In this document: one piece after another, positions 1 through 21,983 of the stretch
How positions within the stretch are numbered: the stretch's first letter is position 1
Layout: every line of letters starts with the position of its first letter
Assembly: GCA_963749085.1 (NCBI GenBank)
Contig: CAVVLG010000002.1
Coordinates: forward strand, 445,863 to 509,862
Source: Candidatus Adlerbacteria bacterium
Lineage (GTDB): Bacteria; Patescibacteriota; Minisyncoccia; Phycocordibacterales; SBAW01
Reading direction: 5' to 3'
DNA length: 64,000 nt
Program-made: the position numbers and the translations under genes
Notes under the pieces: model-generated
Told to the model about the DNA's origin: nothing
Databases searched by the model: none
What the model saw: only the letters and a program-made list of their open reading frames with translations

Positions 1-398
1 CAGCAGCTTCGGCTAACTGACAATTTGTAACTTCGTGTGCATCAAGTGCACTATAACCGCCTTACAACCCCCTAGATGTACTAGATCCTACACACGACAT
101 TGCTGCCATGCACAGAACCTAGTTTCTAGAGTTTGGGCTTTTTCGCGTTCGCTCGCCGCTACTAACGAAATACTTATTAGTCTCTTTTCCTCCAGGTACT
201 GAGATGTTTCACTTCCCTGGGTTTGCTTCTTTCTTGCGAAAGATAATGGAAATTTCTTTCCAATGAGTTTCCTCATTCGGACATCTCCGGATCGAAGGTT
301 GCTTGGCACCTCCCCGGAGCGTATCGCCGCCACGCCGCGTCCTTCATCGCCTTTTAAAGCCTAGGCATCCACCATACGCCCTTATTTGTTCCTTCTCC
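1..398 (-). rRNA. rrl: 23S rRNA, 5' portion (continues beyond window start)
   Basis: Reverse complement contains GGTGGATGCCTAGGC...GGCGATGAAGGACGCG and GGAAGTGAAACATCTCAGTACC, conserved 23S 5'-domain motifs. No 16S rRNA or tRNA within 700 bp upstream. Confidence 0.85.
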
Positions 399-1859: not shown

Positions 1860-1977
1860 AGAAAATAAATGACAAATAATACTTGTTTATAATCGACACC
1901 CTAATTGTAGCAAGCGGACAACTCCTCTTTGAGGAGTGTGTGGATAGCCCTTATGCCACCCATGAGTCAAAAAATCA

Positions 1978-2556
1978 TTATTGTAAGCCAATATTTAGCT
2001 TGTCCAGCACGATGCGGTGCGGATAGTCGAGCACATCACGCAGCAGATGGTCGTTCATATTGATGCGGTAGAAAAAATCCTCGCTTGTGAGAAGCGCGTA
2101 GCGCAGTTCTTTGCCGATTTCACTTTCGAGTCGGCGAATGCGTCCCCGTAATGCGCGTTCGTTAACCTTATCCCCCACAATAAAGAGATCGAGCCGTCCT
2201 TCCCATTCACCCAGAAAAATTCCTGATAGTATCAGGAGTTTCAATATCCCAGTCCGTCGAATGCGCTCATAGATATCCTTGCCCCGCTCCGGCGCATTAA
2301 GAAGTAAATTCTGAAGTGCTTGCAGATATACGAATTCTTCGTTAAGTCCATAGCGAGGAGTCTTTGAACGGCGGACGCGTTTGATAAGCCGTATATCCAA
2401 AAAAATGTTCAATTCACGCCTTGCTTCCTTGCCACTGATGCGGGCATGTTCCATAGCCTCGGGGAGACTAAAAGATTCCTGGGGGTTAAAAAGAAAAAGC
2501 CGAAGCAATTTCACTCGCGCCGCGCTCCCGAAGAGTTTCTGTAATCCATCGGTCAT
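1978..2556 (-). CDS. Hypothetical protein, possible winged-helix DNA-binding protein
   Basis: 192-aa ORF, basic N-terminal region; no recognisable catalytic motif. Confidence 0.45.
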   Translation of the reverse strand: MTDGLQKLFGSAARVKLLRLFLFNPQESFSLPEAMEHARISGKEARRELNIFLDIRLIKRVRRSKTPRYGLNEEFVYLQALQNLLLNAPERGKDIYERIRRTGILKLLILSGIFLGEWEGRLDLFIVGDKVNERALRGRIRRLESEIGKELRYALLTSEDFFYRINMNDHLLRDVLDYPHRIVLDKLNIGLQ

Positions 2557-3182
2557 ACAAGGATAATTCAGCGTTACTCGGCCATTCTAGTTGAAGGTGT
2601 CCACCAGTGCAAAGGTGGATAAAAATAGCCGACATCAGATGATGCTGGCTGTAAACAGGAAGAAGGAACGGGATAGAGAAAGTAGGAGACGGAAAACTGT
2701 GGGGATATGAGCGGAATGGAAATGGAAGGAACAAGAGAGTAAGGGCGAGAGGATAAGAGGGACGAGCGTGATAAAAATCAGAGGCTCAAAAAGTGATGTG
2801 GAGTTTGTGTAACGCCAACGTTTTGGTTTTACCCACAGACCTACGCTGTCAGTCCGTCTATGTATGAGTACCTCCCTATGATGTAAAAGGTTACAAAAAA
2901 GGAGCCTCCGATGGTGGAGGCTCGAAAGAACAATTATGCTGCGTTTGCAGGAAGAAGAGGCTCCTCCGTTCTCTCTGGGTGAGAAAAAACTTCTCGTTCA
3001 TCCTCACCATGAAAGTCCTTGACTGGGTTTTTGCTCGGCAGTGGCAAGTATGCTTCCGCCATCCAGAAACCAAGGCGAGATAAGATCTCCAAGCCAAGCA
3101 TGGCAAACTCCCCTATGAGGCGTCCATTCTGCGATTAAGTATGTGCTTGCTTAGACTGTTAGCAAGGTGTCAGGGTGCGCGA

Positions 3183-3207
3183 AAAACCCCGCTTTTGCGG
3201 GGTTTTT
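3183..3207. terminator. Rho-independent terminator after rplL
   Basis: aaaaccccgc-tttt-gcggggtttt hairpin 25 bp downstream of the rplL stop. Confidence 0.7.
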
Positions 3208-3230
3208 GGTTGACCTATTGCATGTGGAAT

Positions 3231-3605
3231 TTATTTCAGCTCAACCTTGCCTCCCGCGGCCTCGACAGCCACTTTAAGCTTGTCTGCATCTTCCTTCTTC
3301 AATCCTTCTTTAAGCACCGTAGGCGCCGCGTCGACAAGGTCCTTAGCCTCTTTGAGGCCAAGCCCCAAGGCATCCTTGACCGCCTTGATGACCTGTACCT
3401 TCTGCGCGCCCGCGTCAATGAGATGAGCGCTGAAGGCACTCTTCTCCTCGCCTGCTGCGGCACCAGCGGCGGCACCGGGCGTTGCGACCGCAACCGGCGC
3501 TGCGCTCACGCCCCAGCGCGACTCGAGAGTTTTGACGAGCTCGTTAAGCTCCAAGACCGACATTTTCTCTACCTGATCGATGATATCTTTGTGTGTATCC
3601 GCCAT
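3231..3605 (-). CDS. rplL: 50S ribosomal protein L7/L12
   Basis: 124 aa; N-terminal dimerisation region, Ala/Gly/Pro hinge and C-terminal [23 protein letters not shown]...[20 protein letters not shown]-like domain. Confidence 0.95.
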
Positions 3606-3620
3606 ATAGTTATTTTTTAT

Positions 3621-4109
3621 TTAGTCTGCTTTTTTTGCTTGCTCACTGAGCACAACCGCGAAGCGCTGCAACGGACTGTTGAGAATTTGCGCGAACTGCG
3701 CTCGTAGCACCTCAAGTCCTGGTATCGTCGCGATGGAAATAATCTTTCCCTTGTCGACATACGCGCCGCCAAAGACACCCCCCACAAATGAAAGCATGCC
3801 GGGAAATTTCTTAACGAAGGCTGCGAGTTCCCGCGCGGGAGCGAGTTCATCCGCTCCGTACGCTATTGCTATCTCCCCCTCAAGCACAGGCGCTTCCCCC
3901 GTGAAGCCCGCACTTCCAAGTGCCCGGCGAAGAAGGGATTTCTTTGCCACGGTGTAACCGACATGCTGTGCGCGAAGTGTTTTGCGCATTTCGTTTTGTG
4001 CAGACACGTTAAGTCCTTTGAAATTGGCAAAGACGATGGTCTTCGACTTGGCAGCGATATCGCCCACTTTTTCTACAATTTCCTCTTTTTTCTTTTGTGT
4101 GATTGCCAT
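3621..4109 (-). CDS. rplJ: 50S ribosomal protein L10
   Basis: MAITQKKKEEIV...TVAKKSLLRRAL...GIAYGADEL pattern; immediately upstream of rplL. Start chosen at the internal Met of the 185-aa ORF. Confidence 0.9.
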   Translation of the reverse strand: MAITQKKKEEIVEKVGDIAAKSKTIVFANFKGLNVSAQNEMRKTLRAQHVGYTVAKKSLLRRALGSAGFTGEAPVLEGEIAIAYGADELAPARELAAFVKKFPGMLSFVGGVFGGAYVDKGKIISIATIPGLEVLRAQFAQILNSPLQRFAVVLSEQAKKAD

Positions 4110-4414
4110 ATATGTTGGGTACAAAAAATACCCATTTAAAGGGCTTGTGTTCGACCTCGGCAGGATGGATTGCTCCAATTAACGCTTCGTGGCTACCTGC
4201 TATCTGTGGCCCTTATGAGGAAAGGCTACTGCGGTGCGGCTACGTTGTCAATGGTTGGTGAGACTTTTGAGGCGGTAAACAGCAAGATACCGAATGCGAC
4301 GCCTATAATGACGAGAAAGGCAAAAAAGAATCTGAAAAACGTCTTGGTAAAAAACCGATCCATGCTATTATTTTAACATAGAGATATATTACGTCGCAGC
4401 CGAAGCGCATATAC

Positions 4415-4450
4415 AAAAACCGCCCCTCGATCTCTCTTGGAGCGGTTTTT
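4415..4450. terminator. Putative terminator hairpin downstream of csp
   Basis: aaaaccgc...gcggttttt stem flanking a loop, 3' of the minus-strand csp. Confidence 0.4.
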
Positions 4451-4464
4451 GCTGCGAGAGCGGC

Positions 4465-4665
4465 TTATGCGCGCGTAACGTTAGTGGCGCTGAGGCCTTT
4501 TGGCCCTTCGACTACGTCAAAAGAAAGCGTATCGCCTTCTTTTAACTCGTCAAACATGACGCCATTGAGCTCCTTGGAGTGGAAGAAGAGGTCCTTCGTC
4601 TCGCCTTCGCGAGCGATGAATCCAAATCCCCTGTCCTTGACGAGCGTTTTGATTGTTCCTGTCAT
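4465..4665 (-). CDS. cspA: Cold-shock protein (CspA family)
   Basis: 66 aa, MTGTIKTLVKDRGFGFIAREGETKDLFFHSKEL... RNP1/RNP2 motifs. Confidence 0.92.
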   Translation of the reverse strand: MTGTIKTLVKDRGFGFIAREGETKDLFFHSKELNGVMFDELKEGDTLSFDVVEGPKGLSATNVTRA

Positions 4666-4758
4666 CTTTTTTTATATTTTCTGTGGGAAACCCGACCCTG
4701 TTTCTTAGTCTTCTAGACCATCTCCACTCTACCACCTAAGGTATTTTATGTCAACCAG

Positions 4759-5767
4759 TTATCCCCTCGTATTTGCCCTTTGGACATTCTGATAGACGAC
4801 TTTTGAAATCTGCGCAATGATGCTCTCAAGCGTCGGCAGGGGTGCCGAGCCCCGCGTCATGACACACAAGAAGATAGGGGTCGTTTGCGTAGACAATGCC
4901 GCAGTCGTGTAGTTCGTGCTCGGTGGTAACGCCGTTGGGCGCGATGCCGACAAGACCGAGCTTATGGGAGACGACGCGTCGAGCTTGCAACCCCCGCCAC
5001 AATTCCTTGCGTAAAACTAACCTGGCTCATCAGTTGAAGGGCTTTTTCAGAATCGTCTCTGCGAGAGATAGGTCGCGTTATACAGTACGCGGAACAGGGT
5101 TGAAATCTGGTGAGCGGTTATAAAGTCGGCATTTGCCAACGTGACGTTATCTTCCGAAGGAATACCGAGGTCGCCGTACACTCGTGCTGAGCGTATCCGG
5201 GTCAATGTTGGCGTCCAAGAGAGCCGTGGCGTTGTTGTCGGAATATTTGATCATATAGCCAAGAAGCTGCTCCACTGTATAGGTGCGTCCTGGCACAATG
5301 GCTTCCGGCGGCGGAATATCCTGCATCTGGTTTAAATCAGTGCTACCTACTGGATAGGTAAGTTCTTTGTTTAAGACACTGGGATTATTTTCGGACTCTT
5401 GATAATAGGCAATGAGTATCGGTATTTTCCCGAGGCTTGAGGGGTAAAATAGTTCATTTCCGTATACGCTTGCCCAAGCGCCGGTGGTAAGATCCGTAAA
5501 ATAAACGGAAGCTTTGCTGATGTCTCCATCGTTTGTGTGAGTATCGATGATACTCTGGATCTCTTTGCCGAGAAGCGTATTTTCGGTATATACATTTGAG
5601 TTATTGATATTGCACGCAAGAAGCGGATCAATAAACTTGTATCCGCTGAGTCGAAGTGACTGCGCAGGTACAGTATAGTCGCGTGCTCCTTTTATAAACC
5701 ATCCCGCTCCAAATCCAGCCGCACCGATGACGACTGCCACTGCCACTAGTAGTACAAGGTTTTTCAT
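4759..5767 (-). pseudogene. Class A beta-lactamase-like serine hydrolase, disrupted by at least 2 frameshifts and an internal stop
   Basis: 206-aa N-terminal ORF has a signal peptide, an SLGK (SxxK) motif and YSDNNATALL (SDN motif). The downstream sequence continues in two other frames (LGIPSEDNVTLANADFITAHQISTLFRVLYNATY...; ...HKLGLVGIAPNGVTTEHELHDCGIVYANDPYLLVCMTRGS), resembling the KTG / C-terminal region. Confidence 0.6.
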
Positions 5768-5772
5768 CCCTT

Positions 5773-6111
5773 TTATTGTGTACCGTTTGATTGCAGTTGC
5801 AGGAGTTCTGAACTATTTGGGTTTGCTTTTAGTCCGGCTTGTAGTATCGCGGTAGCAGCCGCAGGATTGTTATCGTCATAGCGATAGAGGTTATAGAGAT
5901 CGAGGTAGTAATCCGGGACATTCGGATTTATAGCTATTGCCGCTTGATAGCTAGTCACGGCTTTTGCGTAATTGGTGTCAAAGTTTTGATAGAGGTCACC
6001 CAGATTGCCATAGGCAATATAGTTTATGGAAGAAGGTCCTGTTTGCGCCACATAATTCCACGCCGCTATAGCTCCCGCGTAGTCGCCGCCTATCTTTCGG
6101 TCGACGCCCAA
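5773..6111 (-). CDS. TPR-repeat protein (probably TTG start, possibly truncated)
   Basis: Tetratricopeptide-like repeats (AWNY..YGNLGDLY..NYAKAVTSYQAAIAINPN..YYLDLYNLY). Confidence 0.5.
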   Translation of the reverse strand: MGVDRKIGGDYAGAIAAWNYVAQTGPSSINYIAYGNLGDLYQNFDTNYAKAVTSYQAAIAINPNVPDYYLDLYNLYRYDDNNPAAATAILQAGLKANPNSSELLQLQSNGTQ

Positions 6112-6496
6112 CTGTAGCCACAGATCAACGCGGGTTGGCGTTTGCTTAGTTGTGAGATAAGTGTCTCCTCCTGCGTGCGTAGCGCGGCCTGCGCATCGGC
6201 AGGAAGTGAGGAGGAAATCTGTATTGGGCCACTAAGCGACGGCGGAGGCGTTGTGATAACAGCGGTTATCGTGGCACCCGCAGGAAGGGTCGCTGTGATA
6301 CCGTTACCGAGGTATACGGTGGTAGTGGAGCTAGTGCGTTAGTGCTTGTAGATATATTTGATGCCGGAGCCACTGCCGTGTGCGGTCGCAAAAAGAGTAT
6401 ACCGCCTATAAGAGGAGGGCGACAACAACGCCAACTCCCACCCACATATAGTTGTTCTGCATATATAAGTAGTGTACTGAAAAAATAAGAAACACA

Positions 6497-6524
6497 AAAG
6501 CCCCCTCTTTCGAGGGGGCTTTTG
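6497..6524. terminator. Strong rho-independent terminator (aaaagccccctc-tttc-gagggggctttt)
   Basis: Perfect 12-bp stem plus T-run, 3' of the giant minus-strand surface-protein locus. Confidence 0.7.
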
Positions 6525-6594
6525 TTGCCTGCTGCCTGTATTGGCGGGAGGACTTTGGTGTCTAAGCTCGATCAAGACTCCGAGGAATCAGACC

Positions 6595-9500
6595 AGAGGT
6601 TAGCATTCGACTAGAAACCAGTCGACGGGAGACCAGAGACACCGTAACCGTTCGTCCAGTCGTTGCCTGTCTACAGCAGCCGAAGTGGTTGCGTTAGGAG
6701 ACCAGATGAAGTTATCGGCTGTTGAACCGAGACTGGCTGCAACTTGAGCCGCGTACCCATGAGGACCTATGCCCGTCGGATAGGCAGCGTCGCCCTGGAG
6801 CTGTCGAGGTGATGGTCCAGTTGTTCGCAGTAGCGTTCGGCGAAACATTGCCGGTGAGGATGAAGTACATGGTCGTACCTGCACCAATTTCAAGCGGAGA
6901 GTTCGTACCCTGGTTGAAGTACAAGGTCGGGTTTCCGGTGAGCGTAGCCGTGGTGTAGGCCGTGCCTCCACCGCTGGCGGTATCACCGTCAGTTACACCG
7001 AACTGACCGTTGTAGAACCAGGAACATTTGCAAGACCCGTGTCATAAGACGGGGTGTACGCATGAAGCTGAAGGTTGTTTACGCTTGCCGAAGAAGTCGC
7101 GATCGCGATAGCAAGCTGATAGAGACCGACCGAGCCGTTGGAACCAGCAGTGATGCTGAACTCCTTAAGCACCGCATTCGAACCATTCGGATTGGACGTC
7201 GCTGACAGGACCAGCTGCGAGAGTCGGAACAGTCTTGAAGGTGCGGAAGCCTGCGGACGCAGTGCTGCCGGTGCCATTGATGGTCTTGCCGGAGTTTGCA
7301 CCGATTCCTTGTGAGTTGAGGTAGTCAAGCGCTATGAAGCCTCCTTCTTGGCCAGGCTGGCTGGTGCCAATCTGAGCAATGTCGGCCTTCACAACGAGGT
7401 TCGCATCTTGGTTATTCGGCAACTGGACCGGATTGGTAAGCGTCGAGGTCGCGACGGTAGCATTACCCGTGAAGGATGCCGTACCGAGCAGCGTGCCCGG
7501 GCTTATTGCCGTGCCAGTAGTCGTGAAGATGTTACTACCTGCGTAGAGGTAGACCTGCGTCAAGTCAGACGGTGACGAAGATGCCGCGTTGGTGAGCGTG
7601 AGGCCAACCTTCTGAAGATTGACCGGCTCGTTCGTAGCGCGGAACTTGATCACGTTTGCTGTAACACCGGTCGTACCGCCTGCGACAAGGAAGTAGGACG
7701 GTGATGACGGGTCAAGCGAGGCCACGAGAGTCGCGCCGCTAGAAGCCGTCATGCTAGGACCAGTGCCGCCAGCAAGCGTCACAGTAACTGTGCTGCCGGA
7801 GGTTGCACCCGTAGCTGAGAGGCAGAGGCCGCTGAGAACTGGTAGAGAGCGCCTGCAGCCGCAGAGGACGACAGGTTGCACTCAAGATTGAGCGTCGTGA
7901 CGGTGCCTTTCGGTATTGTCAGCGAATTGTCGAGGCTGAAGGTAAGGGCAAGTTCATGCCGCTGGTTATCGAAGTGCGTTGCTGCCGTTATCGAGACGGT
8001 GCTGCGGTGCCAGCAGGACCGCTGCTGCCGTTGAACACGCGAGTACCGGTGTTAAGAGCGGTCGAACCGTTCCACAGCTGGCAAGCACTCAGGTCAGCCT
8101 CAGTACCGCTCCTGCGGTCGACGAGAGTGAGCGGAATAGATGAGAGACGGACATTCTCACCCGATTGCGATGCATCAAGCTGGATGCCAGCGAAGACGAT
8201 ATTGCTGCCGCCTGCGACAATCGTCTGCGAGGTCGGTGACGTCGAGTTGCCGACAGTGAGCGTTGCGGCCTTAACCGTCATCGTATTCATCGAGAAGGTC
8301 CGTCACGCCCGGCGAGATGTTATTGCCAGTCGTTACACCGGTAATGTTTGTCCAGTCGGAAGACGGATTGGTGGATGCGACGATGGTTGCGCCGTTGATG
8401 CCAGTTTGCGCACCAATCTGACCCTCAATGGTGTAGGTGTTGGTTCCTGTCGGGAACGTTGTCGCACCCGAGAAGGTCACAAACTGATAGCGCCAGTGCC
8501 ACAGAGAAGTGCCGAGCGTTGTGACCATTGTTCGTAGTGGCAGTTGCACTAGAAGCACAATCCGCGTTGTACGGACCAGAAATAACTTGGCCGTTCTGGT
8601 TGACAAGCGAGACGTTCGTGAGCGGACAGAGCGGTAGTGCTCGATCGTGAAGTGCACGATGAGTGACTGCACCTGGATAGCCTCACCGGTGAGATTCGTC
8701 TGGAATCCGCCGAGAGGCTGATTGGGGACGTTAATCGCAATGTTCTGCGCACCAACAGATGTTGCATTCTGGATGGTCGAGAACGTACCCGCGGTGACCG
8801 TAACCGTCGAGCCCTGGATCTACGGAGTCGAGTTCGTACCGGAGACGAAGATCGACGCGTGGCGAAGAGGTGCTGCTGTAGCTCGCAGTACCAGCGCCTG
8901 TGGTCGGCGTTATGCCGTAGCCATAGGTGTTGCCGACAAGGTAGATGTCGGTGTTTCGGTAGATGTCGAACTCTGCGTAGGTGTTGGCCGTTACGCTTGC
9001 ACTCAAGGTCACCCTGCACGTAGACGTCAACCGACTGGCCTTCCTGTATGACGATCGGGATCGGGAAGACAGTCGTGTAGTAGCGGCCGGTCGAGTCAAG
9101 TGTCGTCGGGTACGAAGTACCGTTGACAACGGTCACGACATTGGCAAGACCTGAAGCCGAGCCGGACTGATACCACGTTATCGACTTGAAGCTCAGGTTC
9201 TCCTGCGAACCTGCCTGGATGCGGATAGCCGAGAAGCGGTAGCCCGTAGTGCCGATAGGTTGGCTGGAAGCTGAGTTCGGGTCATACGATGACGTGTATA
9301 TCGTTGCCGAGCCGATGAGCGCGGTGTTGTTGAAGGTGTTGCTTGCACCGGTTATCGGGAGCGAGCCCGATACCGTGGAAGCAGTGTTGACTGCCGTCAC
9401 CGCAAACGACGCGATGTCTCCGGAATTGACGGAGCCTGCTGCAGCAACGTTTGCCGCAACCCAGAAGGTCACGGACGTGCCTGCTGGGATGGTTATCGGA

Positions 9501-10202
9501 TTGCCGATAGCTGCAGTGTGGTTGGCGTCAAGTATGTGCGAAATGCCGAGCTGGATACCGGTCGAAGCATTGATAAGTTCAACGCCTGCAATGTCGGTAT
9601 CAACCGACGGACCCTGGCGCACGACTTCGACACTGTTGATTGTTACCGGAGCGCCATTTGCCGATAACGGTGAAAGCCGTAAACGGAACGCGCGCCGCAC
9701 CTGCCGGAGCGACTGTGTTTGCCGGCTGCGTACTTGCAGTAACGACTGCAGTACCAGCGACAGTGCCAGTGGTTGTGGTCGTAGTGGTCGTGGTCGTCTG
9801 AGCGGTGCCGCTGCAAAGCGCATTAGCCTCAGCTCGAGATGCCGAGAAGAAATTGCCCGTCGGGCTCGAAAGACCGAGAGGAGTCAAGATCTGCGCAGCA
9901 TACTTTTGCTGGAAATTGTTGACCGCTGCTTCGGTGAGATTACCGAAATATTCAGTCTCATTTCCTGGAGAACCGGCGCCGGACGATGCAACCATTGTGT
10001 CCGGATCCATGTTCAAGAATTGCTGGAGTGCCAAGACAGCCGGGCCGGACGAACCGTGTCTAAGGTTCACCGAGAACGTCGTGCCAGGGCACACCGCAGC
10101 CTGCGCCGAGCCGGCCATCGCCATACTGAGCGCAATTGCCACGATCGCTGCGACGCCGAGCGTCAGTGCAGTGATACGTGTAGAACTGTGAGTAATAGTC
10201 AT
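6595..10202 (-). pseudogene. Giant secreted/cell-surface protein gene, fragmented into at least 7 reading frames
   Basis: N-terminal ORF (9600-10202) has a signal peptide, a peptidoglycan-binding-like domain (LQQFLN...GNETEYFGNLTEAAVNNFQQKYA) and a poly-Thr linker. The body continues as overlapping minus-strand ORFs (8549-9823, 8731-9129, 8271-8672, 7988-8290, 7165-7881, 6993-7328, 6712-6924) with Thr/Ser/Gly/Asn/Ala-rich beta-repeat sequence and frame switches. Confidence 0.6.
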
Positions 10203-10658
10203 ACTTTATAATTCGAACGTTAATAATTACTTTTAAAACTACGAATAAAAAGAACGCGAACTGAACAGAAATAACCTACCTATTTTCTTCTCCTTTCGTT
10301 TCTCCGCATCTTATAAAGAAGCAAGAAACTGATGGGGAAGAAAAACTGGGTAGCAAGAGGGGATTTTGAGTTTCAACCGGTGCAGCCGTGGTGGGACAAG
10401 GAGTTCGGTATCACACAACTCTAATGACGCCCTAAGCAGCGAGTGCTCACAGCGTCTTCGAACGTTGACTATTCAATTGTCAACGAACTGCTCTCTACCA
10501 GAGCCTAGCACCCAGTATAGATGCTTATCGGCAAGGCTGCAAAAAGGCCTTGTGGATAAGGCTTTGTGGATAAAGGCCTAAGATCGAGCATACATCTCCC
10601 CCAGTCGGGGGTCAACCGGGCTATAAAGCCTATAAGTCCATAGCAGTATACGCAAAGT

Positions 10659-11396
10659 CTAGGCCAACCGGTACACGCTCCAGCGTCTTTCCCCCTCCTT
10701 ACGAACAAGACCCTTCTTAATAAGACTGGCAAGCTCGCGCTGTATGGTCTTCTCGCTGCAATTCTTGACAACTGCAGATATATCCTTTATAGATAGATTA
10801 TCGTTGCGTTTCAATAAATTAAGAATAACGGACACCCTTTCTTCAGCAACCGCAGAGTGTCCTTTTTTGTTATTTGAGTGTCCTTTATAATGTCTTTTAT
10901 CAATGTCCTTTAGACTAGTGCCTGCGCCCAAAGAGCGGGTGGCGTCCGGGGAGAGCATCGGGGACTCGACATCAACTTGAACAGAAGGGACAGAAAAATC
11001 TTCCCGGGTAATAAAAGGGGAAAGCTGACCTGCACCGGCCATTTTCTCTGCTATCTGTTCATATTCTTGAATAAGAATAAGGCTATTTTCATTACTTATC
11101 AGACCTTGCGTGGTACTCAATCTCACCGCTGAAAGCAATCCTAAAATATCGGCAAGCACTACGGCGAGATCCATTTCCCCTGCTACAAAATGAAGCATGG
11201 TTTGAGGCAATTGTATAGCTGAATGAACCAAATTTCTAAAGGTCTGAATGTCCGATGAGCGCGAACGCTCCGCAAGTACAGCGAGCACATGCGCAATTTT
11301 TTCAGCTTTTAAATAACAAAAATACCAATCTGCTCGTCCTTTAAAAAGGATTGATTTTAAAGCGAATTCATGAAATTTTTTCGGTATATCAGACAC
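10659..11396 (-). CDS. Hypothetical protein with C-terminal winged-helix (DeoR/MarR-like) DNA-binding domain
   Basis: 245 aa; C-terminus ...LSIKDISAVVKNCSEKTIQRELASLIKKGLVRKEGERRWSVYRLA. Confidence 0.55.
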   Translation of the reverse strand: MSDIPKKFHEFALKSILFKGRADWYFCYLKAEKIAHVLAVLAERSRSSDIQTFRNLVHSAIQLPQTMLHFVAGEMDLAVVLADILGLLSAVRLSTTQGLISNENSLILIQEYEQIAEKMAGAGQLSPFITREDFSVPSVQVDVESPMLSPDATRSLGAGTSLKDIDKRHYKGHSNNKKGHSAVAEERVSVILNLLKRNDNLSIKDISAVVKNCSEKTIQRELASLIKKGLVRKEGERRWSVYRLA

Positions 11397-11515
11397 GTTT
11401 TGTCTCTTATATGTCTTTAATAATTTAGCTTATTTTATCGGACATTCAGTATGGGACTACTGTCCTTAGCGTAACCGTAAGAGTTGATTGATGCAAGCAG
11501 TGGTATGATGTTGAC

Positions 11516-13702
11516 ATGGTTGCAAGATATTCCAAGAACGGCAAGAAAAATGGCAGGCAATCTAGCATAGTGAACATTCCCCAGGAGACAAAACGGGCCA
11601 TAGGAGCCGTTCTCCTTATCCTAATAGGTCTTTTGTTGGTGCTTGCAGGGTTTGGCGTCGCTGGTACCGGCGGCACGGACATCTATGGCCTTTTTGGCTC
11701 TTTGCTTGGGGCTATTGGGTACTTTCTCTTGCCGCTCCTTTTCTTTATGCTCGCGGGCAATGCTCTGCGTGAAGATTCGACCGGCTTTACGCCTTTGAAA
11801 ATTACCGCGGGAGGTATCTTTGTGCTCTCAGGACTAGGGTTTTTGGCGCTGGTAGCAAATAGTGGCGGACTCGTGGGGACGCTTATTGCAAACCCTGCAG
11901 TGCATTACTTCGACATCTATGCCGCCCTCCTTATACTGGGGAGTGTCTCCCTTATGTCCCTCCTCATTCTCCTTGAAGGAAGGATTTCCTTGCAACCTTT
12001 CTGGGCTTTGAAAAATCTGCTGATGCGACTCTTCGCACGCATGAAAAAGACTGGGGAACCAACAATGACCGGGCTTGAAGTAGATGAGGAGGTGGAAGAG
12101 CCGGTATATGAAGAAGCATACGAAGTAGATGAGGAGGAGCTTCGCGCGGTGGTCGAGGCTCCATCACACGCCGTGAAAGCGAAGCGGGCAGCGGACACGC
12201 TGAAATCCTTGCTCGGAACGTACAATCCTCCGCCGTTGTCCTTGCTTGAGCGTGATCGAGGCCGACCAGGAGTCGGAGATATTAAAGGTAACGCCAATAT
12301 TATTAAACGAACGCTTGCAAACTTCGGCATCACGGTTGAGTTGGATGAAATCTCTATCGGTCCGTCGGTCACGCGCTATGCGATAAAACCAGCCGAGGGC
12401 GTGCGTTTACAAAAAATAGTTTCCCTGCAGACGAACCTTGAGCTCGCACTTGCCGCGCATCCAGTGCGCATCGAGGCGCCTATACCGGGTAAGTCGTTGG
12501 TCGGGATTGAAGTTCCTAATTCTTCGAAAGTAACCGTGGGCCTTGGCACTATGTTGGAGTCGCCGGAATATACCGAGTCAGGAAAACCATTGTTGGTTGC
12601 GCTCGGACGCAATATCGCAGGAGCGTCCATTTTCGGCAACCTCGGGAAGATGCCCCACATGCTCATTGCGGGTGCAACAGGATCCGGAAAGAGCGTCGCC
12701 ATACACGCAATAATCAACTCGCTTTTGTACCGCTGCGGCCCGCAGCAATTGCGCTTCTTGATGATAGATCCCAAGCGTGTTGAGCTCACTATGTATAACC
12801 AGATCCCTCATTTGCTGACCCCAGTCATTACCGATGCCAAACGCACCATTACCGCCCTGCGCTGGGCGGGCAAAGAGATGGAACGGCGCTACAACGTGCT
12901 TGAGGCAGAGCACGTTCGCGATATCGAGTCGTACCATCAAAATATTTTGACTCCGGAGCTTGAAAAAATACGCAAGCGCGGCGGGGTTGAAGAAGGTGAG
13001 AAAATTCCAGAATTGATGCCGTATATCGTCATTATCATTGACGAGCTCGCCGATATCATGCAGGCCTATCCCCGCGAGCTTGAGGCCGTGGTGGTGCGCT
13101 TGGCCCAAATGAGCCGCGCGGTCGGCATACACCTCATACTCTCAACTCAGCGGCCGAGCGTTAACGTCATTACCGGGCTCATCAAGGCAAATATACCCGC
13201 GCGCGTGGCGCTCCAAGTAGCCTCCCAAATAGATTCCCGCACTATCCTTGATCAAGGAGGGGCTGAGAAGCTCCTTGGAGCAGGTGATATGTTATGGCTC
13301 TCCGGCGACATGGGTAAACCAATCCGCCTTCAAAGCGCGTTCATCAGTGAAGGAGAAGTAAAAAAGGTCGCGTCATTCATCGCGAAACATAACGAAGCAG
13401 AAATCCCGATTGATATTGGTACTCCATTGCCCACCACAAGCGGCATGGGCACGGGCGGTGGATTTAGCGATGAGGAGGACGTGGATGATGAGGTATACGA
13501 AGCGGCACGTCAAGCGGTTATTGAGGCTGGTAAGGCCTCAACGTCCTACATCCAGCGCAAGCTGCGCATTGGATATTCGCGCGCTGCACGCATCATGGAC
13601 ATGCTGGAGGAGCGCGGCGTCATCGGCGCCCAAGATGGGTCCAAGCCACGCGACATACTGGAAAAAGGCATGGACATGGCGCCGGAAGGCCGGGAGGAAT
13701 AG
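11516..13702 (+). CDS. ftsK: DNA translocase FtsK/SpoIIIE
   Basis: 728 aa; N-terminal TM segments; Walker A GATGSGKSV; FtsK alpha/beta motor motifs; C-terminal gamma winged helix (YIQRKLRIGYSRAARIMDMLEERGVIG). Confidence 0.95.
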   Translation: MVARYSKNGKKNGRQSSIVNIPQETKRAIGAVLLILIGLLLVLAGFGVAGTGGTDIYGLFGSLLGAIGYFLLPLLFFMLAGNALREDSTGFTPLKITAGGIFVLSGLGFLALVANSGGLVGTLIANPAVHYFDIYAALLILGSVSLMSLLILLEGRISLQPFWALKNLLMRLFARMKKTGEPTMTGLEVDEEVEEPVYEEAYEVDEEELRAVVEAPSHAVKAKRAADTLKSLLGTYNPPPLSLLERDRGRPGVGDIKGNANIIKRTLANFGITVELDEISIGPSVTRYAIKPAEGVRLQKIVSLQTNLELALAAHPVRIEAPIPGKSLVGIEVPNSSKVTVGLGTMLESPEYTESGKPLLVALGRNIAGASIFGNLGKMPHMLIAGATGSGKSVAIHAIINSLLYRCGPQQLRFLMIDPKRVELTMYNQIPHLLTPVITDAKRTITALRWAGKEMERRYNVLEAEHVRDIESYHQNILTPELEKIRKRGGVEEGEKIPELMPYIVIIIDELADIMQAYPRELEAVVVRLAQMSRAVGIHLILSTQRPSVNVITGLIKANIPARVALQVASQIDSRTILDQGGAEKLLGAGDMLWLSGDMGKPIRLQSAFISEGEVKKVASFIAKHNEAEIPIDIGTPLPTTSGMGTGGGFSDEEDVDDEVYEAARQAVIEAGKASTSYIQRKLRIGYSRAARIMDMLEERGVIGAQDGSKPRDILEKGMDMAPEGREE

Positions 13703-13738
13703 ATTTGGAGGTACCTATCTTTGTGCTAAAATCCTCCC

Positions 13739-14086
13739 ATGACACGGTGGCTTATCGCTCTTGTTGCCATAGTAATTATCGGCTACGGGTTATTTGAGGC
13801 GCGCAAGCTTATTGAGGGACCAGTGGTGATCATACAATCGCCTACAGACGGGAGCGCAACGTCGAGTACCGCAGTCGTTATCTCCGGCGAAGCGGAGAAC
13901 ATCTCGTTTTTGACCATCAATGACGCGCCTGCCTATACCGATGAGCAGGGGCACTTTTCCGAGTTGCTATCTCTGCCAGCGGGATTTACCATATTGACCG
14001 TTGCCGCGATAGACCGGTTTGGGCGAAGAGTATCAAAGTCGGTCTCAATAAACGTTCTTGATTATTGTACTATTACTAATGCATAA
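13739..14086 (+). CDS. Small membrane-anchored hypothetical protein
   Basis: 115 aa, N-terminal TM helix then a beta-rich domain; sits between ftsK and recA. Confidence 0.5.
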
Positions 14087-14093
14087 CTATTGT

Positions 14094-15152
14094 ATGGCCA
14101 AAGGAAAAAATAAAAGTGCGGCAAGAAAAGACAGTACCGCGATAGATGCCGCTATTCGCGAGATAAAAACGAAATTCGGCGACGAGGCTATTATGAAGCT
14201 CGGTGATTCACCCAAGGTGGATGTCGACGTCATACCGTCGGGCTCCATCGGCCTTGATTGGGCGCTCGGCATTGGCGGGTATCCGCGCGGCCGTATTATC
14301 GAAATATACGGGCCAGAATCGTCCGGCAAGACAACGCTCGCCCTCCATGCTATTGCTGAAGCGCAAAAAAAAGGAGGCGTATGTGCATTCATTGACGCCG
14401 AACACGCGCTTGATCCAGAGTACGCCAAGAGAATAGGCGTTAAAATAGACGACCTACTCGTGTCGCAACCCGACACGGGCGAACAGGCGCTTGAAATAGT
14501 TGAATCGTTGGTGCGCTCGGGGAAAATAGACATCATTGTGGTTGACTCCGTGGCGGCGCTGACCCCAAAGGATGAAATAGAAGGCGATATGGGCAGCCAG
14601 CAGATGGGCAAACAAGCACGGCTCATGAGCCAGGCGCTGAGGAAGCTGACCGCCATTACCTCTAAATCAAAGACCCTCATCATCTTTATCAACCAGATCC
14701 GCATGCAAATTGGCATGATGTTCGGCAATCCTGAAACGACCACCGGTGGAAAGGCATTAAAATTTTATACCAGCGTCAGACTCGACATACGCCGCATCGC
14801 CCAAATCAAAAAGGGTGAAGAAGTCGTAGGAGGGCGTCATCGCGTCAAAGTAGTGAAAAATAAAATTGCGGCGCCGTTCCGCAAAACCGAATTCGATCTA
14901 CTCTATAACGAGGGCATATCTCGCGAAGGCGAACTGCTTGCGCTCGGCGAGAGCCTCGGCATTATCCACAAATCGGGTTCCGCGTATTCGTTTGGCGAGG
15001 AGAAGCTGGGTCGTGGATACGACGCATCACGCACTACGCTGCACGAAAATAAAAAGCTTGCTAATGATATCCTCAAGGAAATTCGTACACGACTCTCAGA
15101 GGTGGGCATAGCCGGCGGCAAAATAACCGGTGAGGAATCTGGTGAGGGGTAG
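14094..15152 (+). CDS. recA: Recombinase RecA
   Basis: MAKGKNK...[21 protein letters not shown]...[13 protein letters not shown]...[10 protein letters not shown]; start placed at the internal Met of the 364-aa ORF. Confidence 0.96.
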
Positions 15153-15161
15153 ACTCCCTCT

Positions 15162-15491
15162 TTAAAATGCCATTTGGTGCTGAGACGTAAGCGATTTAAC
15201 GATATCTATTACGAGTGCCGTAAAGGCGCATATGGCTATCAGTAGCGTGAATTGGACCGCACTGTTGGTGTGTTCAACTGCAAACAAGAGATAACCGCTC
15301 GTGGCATTGAGACCGCCACGCTCCACCGCAAGAAAATTTTGGAGCACGTGGGTGACACTGACCAGCCGCCACAGGGCTACCGCAGCCAGAATAAGCACAT
15401 AGAACTCAAGCGCTGTGCGCGAAAGGAGCTTGCGCACGGTATAAATGACCGCCACACCTGCCATTACTTGTCGTTCGATAGTCGTTTTCAT
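15162..15491 (-). CDS. Small membrane protein, possible anti-sigma factor partner of the upstream ECF sigma
   Basis: 109 aa, 3 predicted TM helices, directly downstream of the ECF sigma gene on the same strand (positional inference only). Confidence 0.4.
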   Translation of the reverse strand: MKTTIERQVMAGVAVIYTVRKLLSRTALEFYVLILAAVALWRLVSVTHVLQNFLAVERGGLNATSGYLLFAVEHTNSAVQFTLLIAICAFTALVIDIVKSLTSQHQMAF

Positions 15492-15502
15492 ACGGCTTTA
15501 AA

Positions 15503-16108
15503 CTATTGTCTAACACTAATGGTTTCGTAAATCTTTCTGAACTCCTTTTTGGCGCGGTGCACTCGCGTTTTTATAGCACCGACGCTCACCCCCTCTTCTC
15601 TCGCCATCTCCTCTTGGGTTTTCCCGTCTATAAAAAATGACGAGAGTGCCTGAGCAAACATGTACGGCATACGTGAGAGCACCGACGCTACCTCGTCCCT
15701 TAGTTCTTTTTTCTCAAACTGCCTGAGATTTTTATCTGGAATGAGCGCCCAAATTTCATCATCAAGCTCAGCGGTCATGGCCCCTGCTTTCTTCTTCTTT
15801 TGATAGTGCGTGAGCGCGGTATTGATGAGGATTCGATAGCCCCAAGAGGAGAAACTAGCGCCTTCCTGTTTTTTAAATTTCGCCGCGTTGAGATAGATCT
15901 TAGTGAAGGTCTCCTGCACGATATCCTCGGCCTCTTCCCGCTCACGCACTATGCCATGCGCCTTGCGCAAAAAAGGTTCCTCGTACTTGCGCACCAGAAG
16001 CGCGAACAGTGACGGATGCGCTAAAGAAGCCGCGAGCAGCTCTTCGTCGCTTCTTTCAGCCCTTTCCTCTTCTAATGATAGGTACGCCATGCCTACAGGA
16101 TATATCAT
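15503..16108 (-). CDS. ECF-type RNA polymerase sigma factor (sigma-70 family)
   Basis: Region 2 (EDIVQETFTKIY) and region 4 HTH (EEMAREEGVSVGAIKTRVHRAKKEF). Confidence 0.85.
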   Translation of the reverse strand: MIYPVGMAYLSLEEERAERSDEELLAASLAHPSLFALLVRKYEEPFLRKAHGIVREREEAEDIVQETFTKIYLNAAKFKKQEGASFSSWGYRILINTALTHYQKKKKAGAMTAELDDEIWALIPDKNLRQFEKKELRDEVASVLSRMPYMFAQALSSFFIDGKTQEEMAREEGVSVGAIKTRVHRAKKEFRKIYETISVRQ

Positions 16109-16204
16109 AAGAGCCGTCGTTTACAACTACCGAGCTTGCCGAAAGGTTGCATGACCTATGTTTTTATGTACAATGCATCTAATCGCCTGAGGGCGATTTT
16201 ATAT

Positions 16205-16774
16205 ATGCTCGAATATAATGAAATTCTTCCTAAAAAAGTGATACTTCTCGAAGGCGAGCCGTACGAGGTTCTCGACGCTCATGTCTTTCGCAAACAGATG
16301 AGAAAGCCCGTGAACCAGACCAAGTTGCGCCATCTCATCACCGGTAAGGTGACGGAGCAGGCGTTCCATCAATCGGAAAAGGCCGAAGAAGCCGATCTGA
16401 GCCTCAAGCCTATAAAGTATCTCTATACTAACCGCAGTGAATGGTGGTTTGCCTCGCCGGAGAATCCCGCTGAGCGCTTCAAACTTTCTGCTGAGACCGT
16501 GGGCCCCGGAAGTCAGTTTCTCAAACCAAATTCAGTACTGGACGCAAATCTGTTTAACGACAAGATTATTTCGCTGCGTATACCCATTAAAGTAGACCTG
16601 CTCGTGAAAGAAGCGCCGCCTGCAGTAAAGGGAAATACGGTACAAGGAGGTACCAAGCAAATAGTGCTTGAGACCGGTGCTATGGTGCAGGCTCCCCTTT
16701 TCGTCAACGGGGGTGACGTGGTTCGCGTCAACACGGAGCTCGGCACGTACGTCGAGCGGGTTGATAAGAAATAA
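16205..16774 (+). CDS. efp: Elongation factor P
   Basis: KVILLEGEPYEVLDAHVFRKQMRKPVNQTKLRHLITGKV... three OB/KOW-like domains; start trimmed to the internal Met. Confidence 0.88.
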   Translation: MLEYNEILPKKVILLEGEPYEVLDAHVFRKQMRKPVNQTKLRHLITGKVTEQAFHQSEKAEEADLSLKPIKYLYTNRSEWWFASPENPAERFKLSAETVGPGSQFLKPNSVLDANLFNDKIISLRIPIKVDLLVKEAPPAVKGNTVQGGTKQIVLETGAMVQAPLFVNGGDVVRVNTELGTYVERVDKK

Positions 16775-16851
16775 GACGAACTTCATCATAGTTCCATATT
16801 TCTTCTGATACGTTTGGGCGAGTCGAAAATTTAACCGACAAGATAACGAGC

Positions 16852-17175
16852 TTGATGCTCGAACATAGTATGTGGAAACAATGGACAAATGCGATGCTAG
16901 GACTAGCGGTAGTGATCCTTGCCTTTTATAGGCTTTTAAGCCTAAGTGCGTCGTTCACGTGGGTCTTAGTGGCTTTTGGAATTATCATTTCTGTCTTGGC
17001 TATTTGTAGTACCAACGAGGTTATTGCTTCAGAAGATACTCCAAATCTTATACCTGCGGATATGGACGTTATAAAACAAAAGTTCGTACGATCCTACTCT
17101 CAGTCTAGGGAACTTCTTGGGCTGTATGATGTAAAAAAAATAACTATCGGACGATATACGGCAGAAGTGCCATAA
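16852..17175 (+). CDS. Hypothetical small membrane protein
   Basis: 107 aa with two TM helices; overlaps the 3' end of convergent rpsR by about 30 nt, so lower confidence. Confidence 0.35.
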
Positions 17176-17341
17176 AACGCGCGCGCTTAACGGCTTCGGC
17201 CAGTGCCCGCTGGTTGGCAGACGAGAGGCCCGTGCGGCGGCGTGCCATGATTTTGCCATGCGGATTTAGAAACTTCTTGAGAGTCTCAATATCTTTATAA
17301 TCAATCCGCTGGAATTGTGGGCCGTAAAAATCTTTTTTCAT
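17144..17341 (-). CDS. rpsR: 30S ribosomal protein S18
   Basis: 65 aa; ...[42 protein letters not shown]. Confidence 0.93.
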
Positions 17342-17343
17342 AA

Positions 17344-17787
17344 TTAGAAAGGAATATCATCAGGGTTAATATCCTCCTCCGGATACTCTATAGCATCTTC
17401 TTTGGACGCTTTTGGTGGAGCCTCAGCGCTTGAGGGAGCTCCCGAGTAAGCACCCGCGCCGCTTGAGCGAGGGCCGAACTGCACGCGTTCGGCAACTATC
17501 TCAGTCTTGTACTGTTTGCCTTTCTCTCCTTCCCAACTGCGAGTTTGAAGTCTCCCTTCGACATACGCGGAACTGCCTTTTTTAAGATACTGAGCACAGG
17601 TCTCGGCTTGGCGGCCAAAGACGACAATATTGTGAAACTCAACCTGCTCGGCTTTGCTGCCATCAGCTTTTTTGTATACGCGGTTTGTTGCAATGCCAAA
17701 CGAACAAACTTGGCCGCCACTTGGAAGCGCGCGAATCTCCGGGTCGCGGGTGAGGTTACCGAACACCATTGCCTTGTTGAGATACAT
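17344..17787 (-). CDS. ssb: Single-stranded DNA-binding protein
   Basis: OB fold ([19 protein letters not shown]...), C-terminal acidic tail ending DIPF. Confidence 0.93.
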
Positions 17788-17792
17788 AATAT

Positions 17793-18311
17793 CTAGTTTA
17801 CCAATGCGTCTATTGATTTATTGAGTTCCTCTTCGGAGACTTCGCTACTTTGCTCTTTCGTTGAAACGGGTTTTTGTATCGTTTCGCCCTCAAGTCGGTC
17901 AGAGGTGAAGATGAGACGACGGGGACTTTGAACCTCTTCACGCACGGTCTCAATAAGCAGATAACGCAACGTATCTTTGCTTCCGCGCAGATACGAGTCA
18001 ATGGCCGAGATGTCCTCCCGCTCAAGTGCAAATTTTATCGCTCCAAAATATGCGTTGACGTATTTCTCGTGCTTGCCTGCGGCCGCACGCTCAATGGTGT
18101 AGGCGAGCACTAGTTTGCGCGGAAAATCTTCTTTGATGATCTCAGCGTTATGCTTCAGAAGCTCAGCACGCAGTTTTTCGACAATACCAAGAATACCCTC
18201 TTCTCCAACGGTGGGCACGATATGAAAACCGATCTCATAGACCGGCTGTTTGCTGTGCTCCGCTTGAGATGAGGTCTGAGTGACCTGCGGCGACTCTGCC
18301 ATGCGTGGCAC
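17793..18311 (-). CDS. rpsF: 30S ribosomal protein S6 with N- and C-terminal extensions
   Basis: YEIGFHIVP...core typical of S6; classical rpsF-ssb-rpsR order. Confidence 0.8.
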   Translation of the reverse strand: MPRMAESPQVTQTSSQAEHSKQPVYEIGFHIVPTVGEEGILGIVEKLRAELLKHNAEIIKEDFPRKLVLAYTIERAAAGKHEKYVNAYFGAIKFALEREDISAIDSYLRGSKDTLRYLLIETVREEVQSPRRLIFTSDRLEGETIQKPVSTKEQSSEVSEEELNKSIDALVN

Positions 18312-18329
18312 TATAGCAGAGCAGGCTTT

Positions 18330-19109
18330 TTATTGCAACTTGAAAATTCGTTGTGAATTAAGGACGATTTGGTGACTTAGTTCTTCAACTGACATATGTT
18401 TGATCGCGGCCATTTTTTTTACTACTTCTTCCACATAAATCGGCTCGTTGCGCTTCCCCCTAAACGGCACAGGTGCGGCAAAGGGCGAGTCAGTTTCACT
18501 TAATATTTTATCGAGCGGGGTAATCCGTATAGATGCATCATACATATTGGTGTAAGTTATCGGCCCGGGAAAGGAAAGAAAGAAACCGAGGTCGAGATAT
18601 TTTTGAGCAAGATCGGCAGAACCCGTAAAAAAATGTATGACGGCTTGTAATGTATTATATTCTTTTTTATAACTTCCTAAAATCTCAAGCATGTCATCGT
18701 GTGCATTTCTACAATGAATGATGAGTGGTTTCTTTACTTTCAAAGAAAGTTTGATTTGCAATATAAAGTGCTGCTTCTGTACAATTTTTTCTTCATCAGT
18801 GCTGCCAGAGCGAAAATAGTCGAGGCCACACTCCCCTATTGCGACAACGTGGCGCTCGCCTGCAAGCTTCTCGTACTTTGCTATATCAAAATGCTCTTTT
18901 TTATTATCATTGGGGTGCAAACCAACTGAGGCCCATAAAAAATCGTGTTGTTTTGCGAGTTCAAGCCCCGCCATGCTGGTGTCTATATCCGTCCCGACAA
19001 CAATGCCTCCAACCTCCCTTTCCTGCATTCGCAGGAGTACCGCCGCCTGATCAACGTTAAACTGCGGCAACTGCAAATGACAGTGCGAGTCAAAGGATTT
19101 CAGCCTCAT
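18330..19109 (-). CDS. tatD: TatD-family metal-dependent DNase/hydrolase
   Basis: SHCHLQ...GLHP...AIGECGLDY...motifs of the TatD amidohydrolase fold. Confidence 0.88.
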   Translation of the reverse strand: MRLKSFDSHCHLQLPQFNVDQAAVLLRMQEREVGGIVVGTDIDTSMAGLELAKQHDFLWASVGLHPNDNKKEHFDIAKYEKLAGERHVVAIGECGLDYFRSGSTDEEKIVQKQHFILQIKLSLKVKKPLIIHCRNAHDDMLEILGSYKKEYNTLQAVIHFFTGSADLAQKYLDLGFFLSFPGPITYTNMYDASIRITPLDKILSETDSPFAAPVPFRGKRNEPIYVEEVVKKMAAIKHMSVEELSHQIVLNSQRIFKLQ

Positions 19110-20557: not shown

Positions 20558-20566
20558 GCATTGAAA

Positions 20567-21676: not shown

Positions 21677-21983
21677 TTTCGAGAAGTACTATGGCGATAC
21701 CGGCCGCGATAAGTCCGAGTATTTCCACAAATCCGATTCGCTCCTTAAAAAAGAGCCAGCCGACGATAGCCAGAATCGTAATATTAAAAAGTACCAGAAG
21801 TGCCGAGGCGACCTCAATATTCTCAAACTTATAGCTTTCAATAAGCGGAATGAGTCCCCCTATATACAGAAGCATACCAAGCCCATAGAGATACGGATTG
21901 TAATGCCCTGCATAATATTTAAAAACGATGTCGCCAAGTGTGAGCAATACTCCCCCGCCCAATAAAAGTACTGTAACGTACAT
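21666..21983 (-). CDS. Small 4-TM membrane protein (SMR/DMT-like)
   Basis: 105 aa, four hydrophobic helices; overlaps the next gene by 11 nt. Confidence 0.5.
   Translation of the reverse strand: MYVTVLLLGGGVLLTLGDIVFKYYAGHYNPYLYGLGMLLYIGGLIPLIESYKFENIEVASALLVLFNITILAIVGWLFFKERIGFVEILGLIAAGIAIVLLEIGG

Follow-up and report, generated by a model that had tools for sequence, protein, structure and literature searches.

A block of single-base indels across three adjacent genes of a Candidatus Adlerbacteria contig: very probably a consensus artefact at a strain-heterogeneous locus

Introduction

Multiple frameshifts within a bacterial gene may be read as decay, and neutrally decaying pseudogenes are well exemplified by those of Mycobacterium leprae and Rickettsia. 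Spontaneous bacterial indels are approximately tenfold rarer than substitutions (about ten or more substitutions per indel in natural spectra) and are concentrated in homopolymers, and those found in pseudogenes are biased toward deletions and are of varied size. Frameshifts may also be introduced by assembly: such errors in long-read metagenome assemblies have been addressed by proovframe (bioRxiv 10.1101/2021.08.23.457338), and indel errors in long-read assemblies by the IDEEL test (Sereika et al. 2022, PMC9262707). The present study concerns a broken surface-protein gene located at positions 10202-6611 (minus strand) of a 64,000-nucleotide (nt) stretch of the Candidatus Adlerbacteria bacterium assembly GCA_963749085.1 (contig CAVVLG010000002.1, positions 445,863 to 509,862); this whole stretch is referred to below as the window. 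A first-pass annotation, made from the sequence letters, offered three readings of this gene without choosing among them, namely active pseudogenisation of an adhesin-like protein, a hypervariable locus collapsed by assembly, and slipped-strand phase variation. The analysis presented here makes it very probable that the frameshifts are a consensus artefact at a locus at which several closely related populations differ.

Results

Lesions of the surface-protein gene

On the minus strand, between the ATG at 10202 and the stop codon at 6613-6611, no intact open reading frame (ORF) was found by an ORF scan and three-frame translation. The gene comprises approximately 1190 codons and is coding only as 13 segments distributed over three frames, and its lesions are 12 frame switches, corresponding to 13 one-base indels (10 extra and 3 missing bases), together with one in-frame TAG (Table 1). 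The switches were mapped by frameshift-aware protein-to-DNA alignment against seven intact homologs and against the close ortholog carried by contig L011, and the identical 12 switches were returned by each of the seven homolog alignments. Joining the 13 segments from the three-frame reading gave a stitched protein of approximately 1195 amino acids (aa), with versions of 1191-1198 aa. The at least seven frames and at least six switches reported initially were thus borne out and exceeded, and the initial description of an intact N-terminus with a signal peptide, a peptidoglycan-binding-like domain and a poly-Thr linker, followed by a beta-rich body, proved to be correct. The N-terminal stretch 9667-10202 is 100% identical to both the Logan contig L001 and the ENA contig L011.

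At the in-frame stop, the window reads TAG ATC, L011 and L015 read TAC TTC, and the other family members have Trp-Ile; the TAG could be a chimeric codon. The G+C content over the surface-protein gene is 0.56-0.58 (bins 6501-7000 to 9501-10000), compared with 0.39-0.56 (mostly 0.45-0.53) around it; this probably reflects the Thr/Ala/Gly/Ser-rich composition of the product, and a separate history of the gene would fit too.

Table 1 Features at and around the damaged locus (window coordinates) and independent contigs aligned to it. Haplotype shorthand in the site comparisons: Z, L011; V, L015
Feature	Position	Strand	Description
Cold-shock protein gene	4465-4665	-	Intact, 0 frame switches; first undamaged gene left of the block
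Class-A beta-lactamase-like (Beta-lactamase2) gene	4762-5767	-	4 frameshifts, each one extra base: 5185, 5061, 4976, 4870
Indel-dense block	4870-9665		20 single-base indels (14 extra, 6 missing), ~1 per 240 nt
TPR-repeat membrane protein gene	5773-6462	-	3 frameshifts, each one missing base: 6414, 6337, 6149
Intrinsic-terminator-like hairpin	6494-6525	-	14-bp stem then T run, ~85 nt past the surface-protein stop codon; strong
Surface-protein gene	6611-10202	-	N-terminal peptidoglycan-binding-like domain, Thr linker, tandem immunoglobulin (Ig)-like beta-sandwich domains
Intact N-terminal part, 179 codons	10202-9666	-	Signal-peptide-like hydrophobic segment, PG_binding_1-like domain, run of ten Thr, start of first beta domain
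Frameshift 1	9664-9665	-	Extra base, GTTA[T]CG vs GTTACG in Z and V; L001 end (9667) and loss of L011 identity here
Frameshift 2	9004-9007	-	Extra base, CTT[G]AGT
Frameshift 3	8861-8862	-	Extra base, TCG[C]CAC
In-frame TAG	8820-8822	-	TAC (Tyr) in Z and V; Trp or Phe in other homologs
Frameshift 4	8638-8645	-	Two separate 1-nt insertions (8645, 8638) vs V and Z, net +2
Frameshift 5	8523-8526	-	Extra base, variable part of the protein
Frameshift 6	8297-8298	-	Extra base, GAC[C]TTC
Frameshift 7	7996-8005	-	Missing base; window V-like save GG -> G
Frameshift 8	7822-7823	-	Missing base, TCT-GCCTC vs TCTGGCCTC
Frameshift 9	7205-7207	-	Extra base; window G+T in tandem, Z = G, V = T
Frameshift 10	7012-7013	-	Missing base, variable site
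Frameshift 11	6804-6805	-	Extra base; window G+A in tandem, Z = G, V = A
Frameshift 12	6671-6677	-	V-like phase then Z-like phase, between two compensating indels that tell these haplotypes apart
424-aa ORF, partly out of frame	8549-9823	-	Public protein P0242, from a 518,058-bp source contig
L001 (Logan, run ERR12036785)	9667-23702		100% identity, ends at 9667; intact right flank only
L010 (Logan, run ERR12036785)	1871-4165		99.96% identity; left flank only
L011 (ENA ERZ25039587 contig_64783)			Gene order as in the window; three locus genes intact (1195, 228, 331 aa)
L013 (Logan, run ERR12036785)			~81% identity; beta-lactamase-like gene intact
L014 (Logan, run ERR12036785)	4737-6520		93% identity; beta-lactamase gene intact; TPR gene cut at contig start, uninterrupted
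L015 (ENA ERZ25039587 contig_64782)			~82-84% identity on both flanks

A damaged block of three genes

The claim that the damage is specific to the locus stands in so far as ftsK (11516-13702) and all of the genes between 10.6 and 64 kb are intact, but it does not hold for a single gene, since the neighboring TPR and beta-lactamase-like genes are frameshifted as well, and the affected block extends over approximately 4.8 kb. Similarly, the same decay had been noticed in the beta-lactamase-like gene; the frameshifts are indeed present there, but decay as their cause is disfavored by the dN/dS value given below. All of the 19 frame switches fall within three consecutive genes, i.e., within 7.5% of the window, against none in the other 59 kb, and such clustering is far beyond chance. 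The block lies inside the gap 4166-9666 between two Logan contigs matching the window's own haplotype.

Both neighboring genes have intact counterparts. TPR orthologs of 228 aa are found in L011 and L015, and the base missing from the TPR gene of the window is present in L014 at three of three sites; intact 331-aa versions of the beta-lactamase-like protein are P0121 (L011), P0122 (L013) and P0241 (L014, 95.6% nt identity). The L10 and L7/L12 ribosomal protein genes of the window are intact, and the genes outside the block are read with the standard code 11. In its dense intact ORFs from 10.6 to 64 kb and its three tRNAs, the window resembles a small candidate-phyla-radiation genome.

Independent contigs and co-occurring haplotypes

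Independent contigs were recovered through exact-protein look-ups, and at least four further haplotypes of the locus (L011, L013, L014 and L015), 78-96% identical to the window here, were found in the same sample. Every locus gene covered by L013 and L014 is intact, whereas L011 and L015 carry frameshifts inside ribosomal protein genes: L10 of L011 is broken by one frameshift (at ~8327 of this contig), and 18 frameshifts plus several stops have to be accepted to read the L10, L7/L12, 245-aa, beta-lactamase-like and surface-protein genes of L015. Because L10 and L7/L12 are essential, the lesions in them must be errors, and the public contigs of assembly ERZ25039587 carry many such indel errors. 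The Flye-style contig names, together with the ribosomal-gene lesions, suggest error-prone long-read assemblies.

L011 is 100.0% identical to the window from 9667 to its own end at 12225 (2559 nt), and leftwards from 9665 the identity is 72-93% over 6.4 kb; the first difference between the two is the 1-nt indel behind frameshift 1. The right edge of the block is therefore within 2 nt both of the L001 end and of the point at which L011 diverges. On the left, the Logan contig reaches as far as 4165, and frameshifts are detectable from 4870 onwards. Compared with L014, the window shows 1-nt indels exactly at all seven frameshift sites of the TPR and beta-lactamase-like genes.

The contrast between the two flanks of L011 is not shared by L015, whose identity is alike to the left and to the right. 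There are two possible reasons for it: one of the two contigs, L011 or that of the window, may be chimeric, or DNA may have been exchanged very recently, by recombination or transfer, with a breakpoint within the surface-protein gene.

An intact beta-lactamase-like protein of the window's own haplotype was not found, the nearest being the L014 allele, and for the C-terminal quarter of the surface-protein gene no relative closer than 70% was found. Exact look-ups of the N-terminal 200-aa fragment and of several other window fragments returned no record. Relatives among the GTDB representatives (Adlerbacteria and Paceibacterota metagenome-assembled genomes) are only 39-61% identical, and no paper was found for the run or assembly accessions.

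Indel spectrum and traces of mixed haplotypes

All 20 frame-breaking indels are of 1 nt, 14 being insertions and 6 deletions. Homopolymer or short-repeat tracts at the shift points, a check proposed with the first-pass annotation, were looked for and none was present: a homopolymer of three or more bases or a tandem repeat was found at 0 of the 20 sites, the longest run within 4 nt on either side being two bases, and Tandem Repeats Finder applied to 4700-10300 detected no more than three repeats, all trivial and of two copies, none of which coincides with a shift point.

At several sites, the extra base corresponds to a second haplotype allele. Both alleles of single-nucleotide polymorphisms (SNPs) between haplotypes stand side by side in the window at 4870 (C/T), 4976 (C/G), 5185 (A/C), 7206 (G/T) and 6804 (G/A); at 6677 the window switches from the L015-like to the L011-like phase, and at 7996 and 7823 it equals another haplotype minus one G. 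Tandem double alleles accounted for 4 of 13 insertions in an automated test, or 5 of 13 when 4870 was added by inspection, against approximately 1.25 expected. At the variable sites of the beta-lactamase-like gene, the window has 2% private alleles, the fewest of all haplotypes (8-26% in the others), and its distance to every outgroup is smaller than that of its sister L014; both features are as expected for a consensus of mixed reads.

Frameshifts and switches of the nearest haplotype along the surface-protein gene showed no clear coincidence save at 7206 and 6677. A simple two-way mixture of L011 and L015 was considered as the origin of the block and rejected, with many private window sites in 8000-9000.

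Selection and rates of change

In the stitched frames, the ratio of non-synonymous to synonymous substitution rates (dN/dS) relative to L011 was 0.16 for the surface-protein gene (dS 0.52), 0.07 for the TPR gene (dS 1.55) and 0.028 for the beta-lactamase-like gene (dS 1.9). The residues flanking each indel are conserved between the window and L011, their codons differing synonymously, and all four frameshifts of the beta-lactamase-like gene fall in the part that encodes its C-terminal 125 residues, only two of which differ from L011. Among 325 columns of the surface protein that are at least 80% conserved in 118 homologs, three lineage-specific departures were counted for the window and one for L011; if the twelve indels were natural and each had come with as few as five substitutions, a dozen or more departures would be expected. 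A relative-rate test of the window against L014, with L011 and L013 as outgroups, assigned to the window branch of the TPR and beta-lactamase-like genes 21 private substitutions (9 non-synonymous and 12 synonymous) and 7 indels, and to the sister L014 60 substitutions and no indels. The stitched frames are under strong purifying selection, without relaxation.

The dS of the surface-protein gene between haplotypes (~0.4-0.5) is lower than that of the TPR, beta-lactamase-like and L10/L12 genes (1.5-1.9), and the nearest haplotype shifts along the gene, which is L015-like at ~7700-8060, L011-like at ~6800-7250 and private at 8100-9650. The low dS and the mosaic ancestry are due either to recombination between co-occurring populations or to the mixed consensus, of which they would be a by-product.

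The protein family

The stitched product aligned end to end (96-100% coverage) with more than 800 intact Patescibacteria/Paceibacterota proteins of 1130-1220 aa, with P0001 as the best match (64% identity), and more than 100 family members were matched at this coverage with E = 0. Over 1190 aligned codons, its identity with the intact L011 ortholog (1195 aa) is 89%. Every homolog retrieved was intact, and the ortholog comparison that had been recommended as a check thus came out in favor of intact genes, both in L011 and in the wider family.

Where a name is given, the family is annotated as "peptidoglycan-binding domain-containing protein". In the stitched product, PF01471 (PG_binding_1) was matched at residues 53-101 with 20.1 bits (E 7.5e-4), which is under the Pfam cutoff of 23, and the homolog P0019 scored 35.7 bits; on the family, Pfam returned the peptidoglycan-binding domain only, and a sequence search of the PDB with P0001 gave no match. 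An alignment of 59 sequences (A1) of this family of ~1150-aa proteins (P0001-P0120) contains 61 invariant columns and two invariant Cys. The AlphaFold2 model of P0001 built on it (m56c3c7dd0beb) has a mean predicted local distance difference test score (pLDDT) of 86; in it, a helical peptidoglycan-binding domain (residues 40-135) is followed by a disordered Thr/Gly linker and approximately seven beta-sandwich domains. Foldseek returned only generic Ig-like arrays with low global template-modeling (TM) scores, i.e., PrgB, antigen I/II C123, alpha-2-macroglobulin MG domains and integrin legs. The C-terminus of the window copy reads TGNDWTNGYGVSGLPSTGF, and the family motif DWTNGYGV-GLPS-G is kept. 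From its domain make-up, the protein is predicted to be a wall-anchored surface or adhesin-like protein.

Other features of the window

A bacterial 23S rRNA 5' end lies at 1-395 (minus strand), running off the window start (Rfam RF02541, 221 bits). Between ftsK and the surface-protein gene, a conserved 245-aa gene is located at 10659-11396 (minus strand; 830-1567 of L011 and 993-1730 of L001), which is syntenic in all haplotypes. The C-terminus of its product matched HTH_36 and DeoR-like domains, both below the Pfam cutoffs, and this protein may be a regulator.

Discussion

The results obtained very probably mean that the frameshifts are a consensus artefact at a strain-heterogeneous locus. 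What was found is a cluster of indels that runs across gene borders and has clean sequence on either side, several haplotypes coexisting in one sample, and a block edge that coincides with an independent contig break. Of the three initial readings, the hypervariable locus collapsed by assembly is the one supported, by the four haplotypes, by the end of L001 at frameshift 1 and by the insertions that carry both alleles. The sequence of events could be as follows. Several closely related populations would coexist in the sample, and an error-prone assembly, long-read or hybrid, would have collapsed or mis-polished their reads over the locus, so that reads that were mixed or too few went into the building or polishing of the consensus of the interval 4166-9666, which was left with ~0.4% single-base indels; a few substitution errors, probably including the TAG, would have remained in the block too, and its flanks would have been resolved or polished cleanly. 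Errors that avoid homopolymers, often fall on haplotype SNPs and are gathered in one block of ~5 kb point to strain collapse or failed polishing rather than to generic homopolymer error. The real gene of the organism is probably intact, and its product would be expressed as a wall-anchored surface protein.

Several points weigh against this interpretation. Nanopore consensus errors typically favor homopolymers, unlike the pattern seen here, and the in-frame TAG is a substitution and not an indel. The test for both alleles in tandem is only moderately significant (about 0.01) and hence suggestive, not conclusive; heterogeneity at the individual sites is indicated by the comparison of assemblies and not by reads, and the long-read origin of the assemblies is deduced from contig naming and error patterns, not from metadata. 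No independent contig was found that combines the exact haplotype of the window with an intact frame, the closest being 93-96% identical and, for the surface-protein gene, only 84-89%. Finally, the mosaic ancestry of the block could equally be due to natural recombination.

In a variant of this interpretation, the contig would be chimeric, with the block 4166-9666 taken from a low-abundance relative and placed between the flanks of an abundant organism, the frameshifts then being long-read errors at low coverage. The Logan assembly of ERR12036785 contains the flanks at 99.96-100% and, instead of the block's own haplotype, the intact, 93%-identical L014; in L011 the right flank, identical to that of the window, is followed by another allele that is intact, and the indel density of approximately 4 per kb is like that of the low-quality contig L015 (approximately 2 per kb). 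At the same time, the lowest number of private alleles and the tandem double alleles are more readily explained by a mixture than by one rare haplotype. This variant, which is included in the consensus artefact as formulated above, is considered credible but rather unlikely. Recent true pseudogenisation of a three-gene envelope cluster, in which small indels would have accumulated in all three genes after a first inactivating hit, is distinctly improbable. In its favor, the deposited sequence does contain the frameshifts, together with a nonsense codon (TAG 8822-8820), the three genes are adjacent and co-oriented and may be one functional unit lost together, and gene loss does occur in reduced candidate-phyla-radiation genomes. 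However, the ratio of indels to substitutions on the window branch is approximately 1:3 and the synonymous bias is kept, changes at conserved residues are not in excess, and all of the indels are of one size, biased 14:6 toward insertions and absent from runs of three or more bases. Moreover, the damage ignores gene boundaries, its right edge coincides with an independent contig end and with haplotype divergence, and like frameshifts hit essential ribosomal genes of sister contigs in the same dataset. An identical flank, the mosaic ancestry and a dS below that of the neighboring housekeeping genes also led us to consider that the block is real and represents an envelope cassette of all three genes that recombines between coexisting Paceibacterota populations and was silenced in this lineage by an unusual burst of single-base insertions outside homopolymers. 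We regard this as very unlikely; if true, it would imply an indel-prone mutational process of a new kind or a translation tolerant of frameshifts.

The two remaining explanations have a negligible probability. Surface adhesins are classically phase-variable, and the frame is broken here by 1-nt changes, as would be expected of a contingency locus whose expression is toggled by slipped-strand mispairing; yet the sequence context at the indel sites, none of which offers a homopolymer or short tandem repeat, rejects phase variation, and twelve simultaneous "off" switches, with seven more in two neighboring genes, would make no regulatory sense. Expression of the gene regardless of its lesions, via programmed ribosomal frameshifting or other recoding or editing, would agree with the coding potential that is fully kept on either side of every shift. 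Inspection of the 19 sites revealed no common slippery motif or downstream structure, however; the shifts are of mixed direction (+1 and -1), a TAG stop is present as well, the other genes of the window keep to the standard code, and no recoding has to be invoked for the orthologs of the four co-occurring haplotypes or for the more than 800 homologs, so that this possibility too is given virtually no weight relative to a consensus artefact.

A literal reading of the frameshifts would count this locus as an adhesin in decay and cite it in support of genome reduction, or of phase variation, in a bacterium of the candidate phyla radiation, whereas the consensus of a deposited genome contig is most likely faulty over approximately 5 kb here. 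Public protein collections already list fragments of the block as if they were distinct proteins, namely P0242, P0202 (206 aa, 5147-5767), P0243 (112 aa, 5773-6111) and P0263 (a 195-aa ORF of the same contig). P0202, for which no DNA source was traced, even represents the cluster to which the intact P0241 (331 aa) belongs. Frameshift-aware ortholog alignment, dN/dS with relative rates, the indel spectrum and independent assemblies together provide a recipe for telling artefact from decay without reads. What remains as biology is a family of uncharacterized multi-Ig surface proteins with predicted wall binding, very widespread and well conserved in Paceibacterota, and encoded here at a locus that is highly diverse among co-occurring populations.

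Within this family (e.g., P0001, P0019 and P0020), the window copy is colinear over its full length and 56-64% identical to the closest members, and it shares with them the Thr/Gly linker, the motifs FTAFTVTANGAPVTINSV and GSTVTVTAGTFSTIQNATSVGAQN and the C-terminal DWTNGYGVSGLPSTG, its corresponding N-terminal region being PG_binding_1-like but below the Pfam cutoff; it differs in having no intact frame, with its switches and its TAG. The best Foldseek matches to the family model are the multi-Ig wall adhesins of Gram-positive bacteria (PrgB, 8beg; antigen I/II C123, 7l0o and 4tsh; E 6e-16 to 6e-9). Both groups are cell-surface, wall-attached proteins, attachment being a prediction in the case of the family, but at 8-13% identity and a global TM of 0.1-0.2 the likeness is one of fold class only, and, unlike those adhesins, the family has no LPXTG sortase signal, so that attachment would be by the N-terminal PG_binding_1 domain. 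Like a neutrally decaying pseudogene, the damaged gene has several frameshifts and a stop codon where its relatives have an intact frame; it departs from such pseudogenes in that selection is not relaxed, the indels are of 1 nt and insertion-biased, and the damage is bounded by an assembly breakpoint. With long-read frameshift errors, it shares single-base indels that split or truncate conserved genes, as in the essential genes of the sister contigs, and it differs from the usual pattern in being confined to one block of ~5 kb in a clean 64 kb, in avoiding homopolymers and in falling often on haplotype SNPs.

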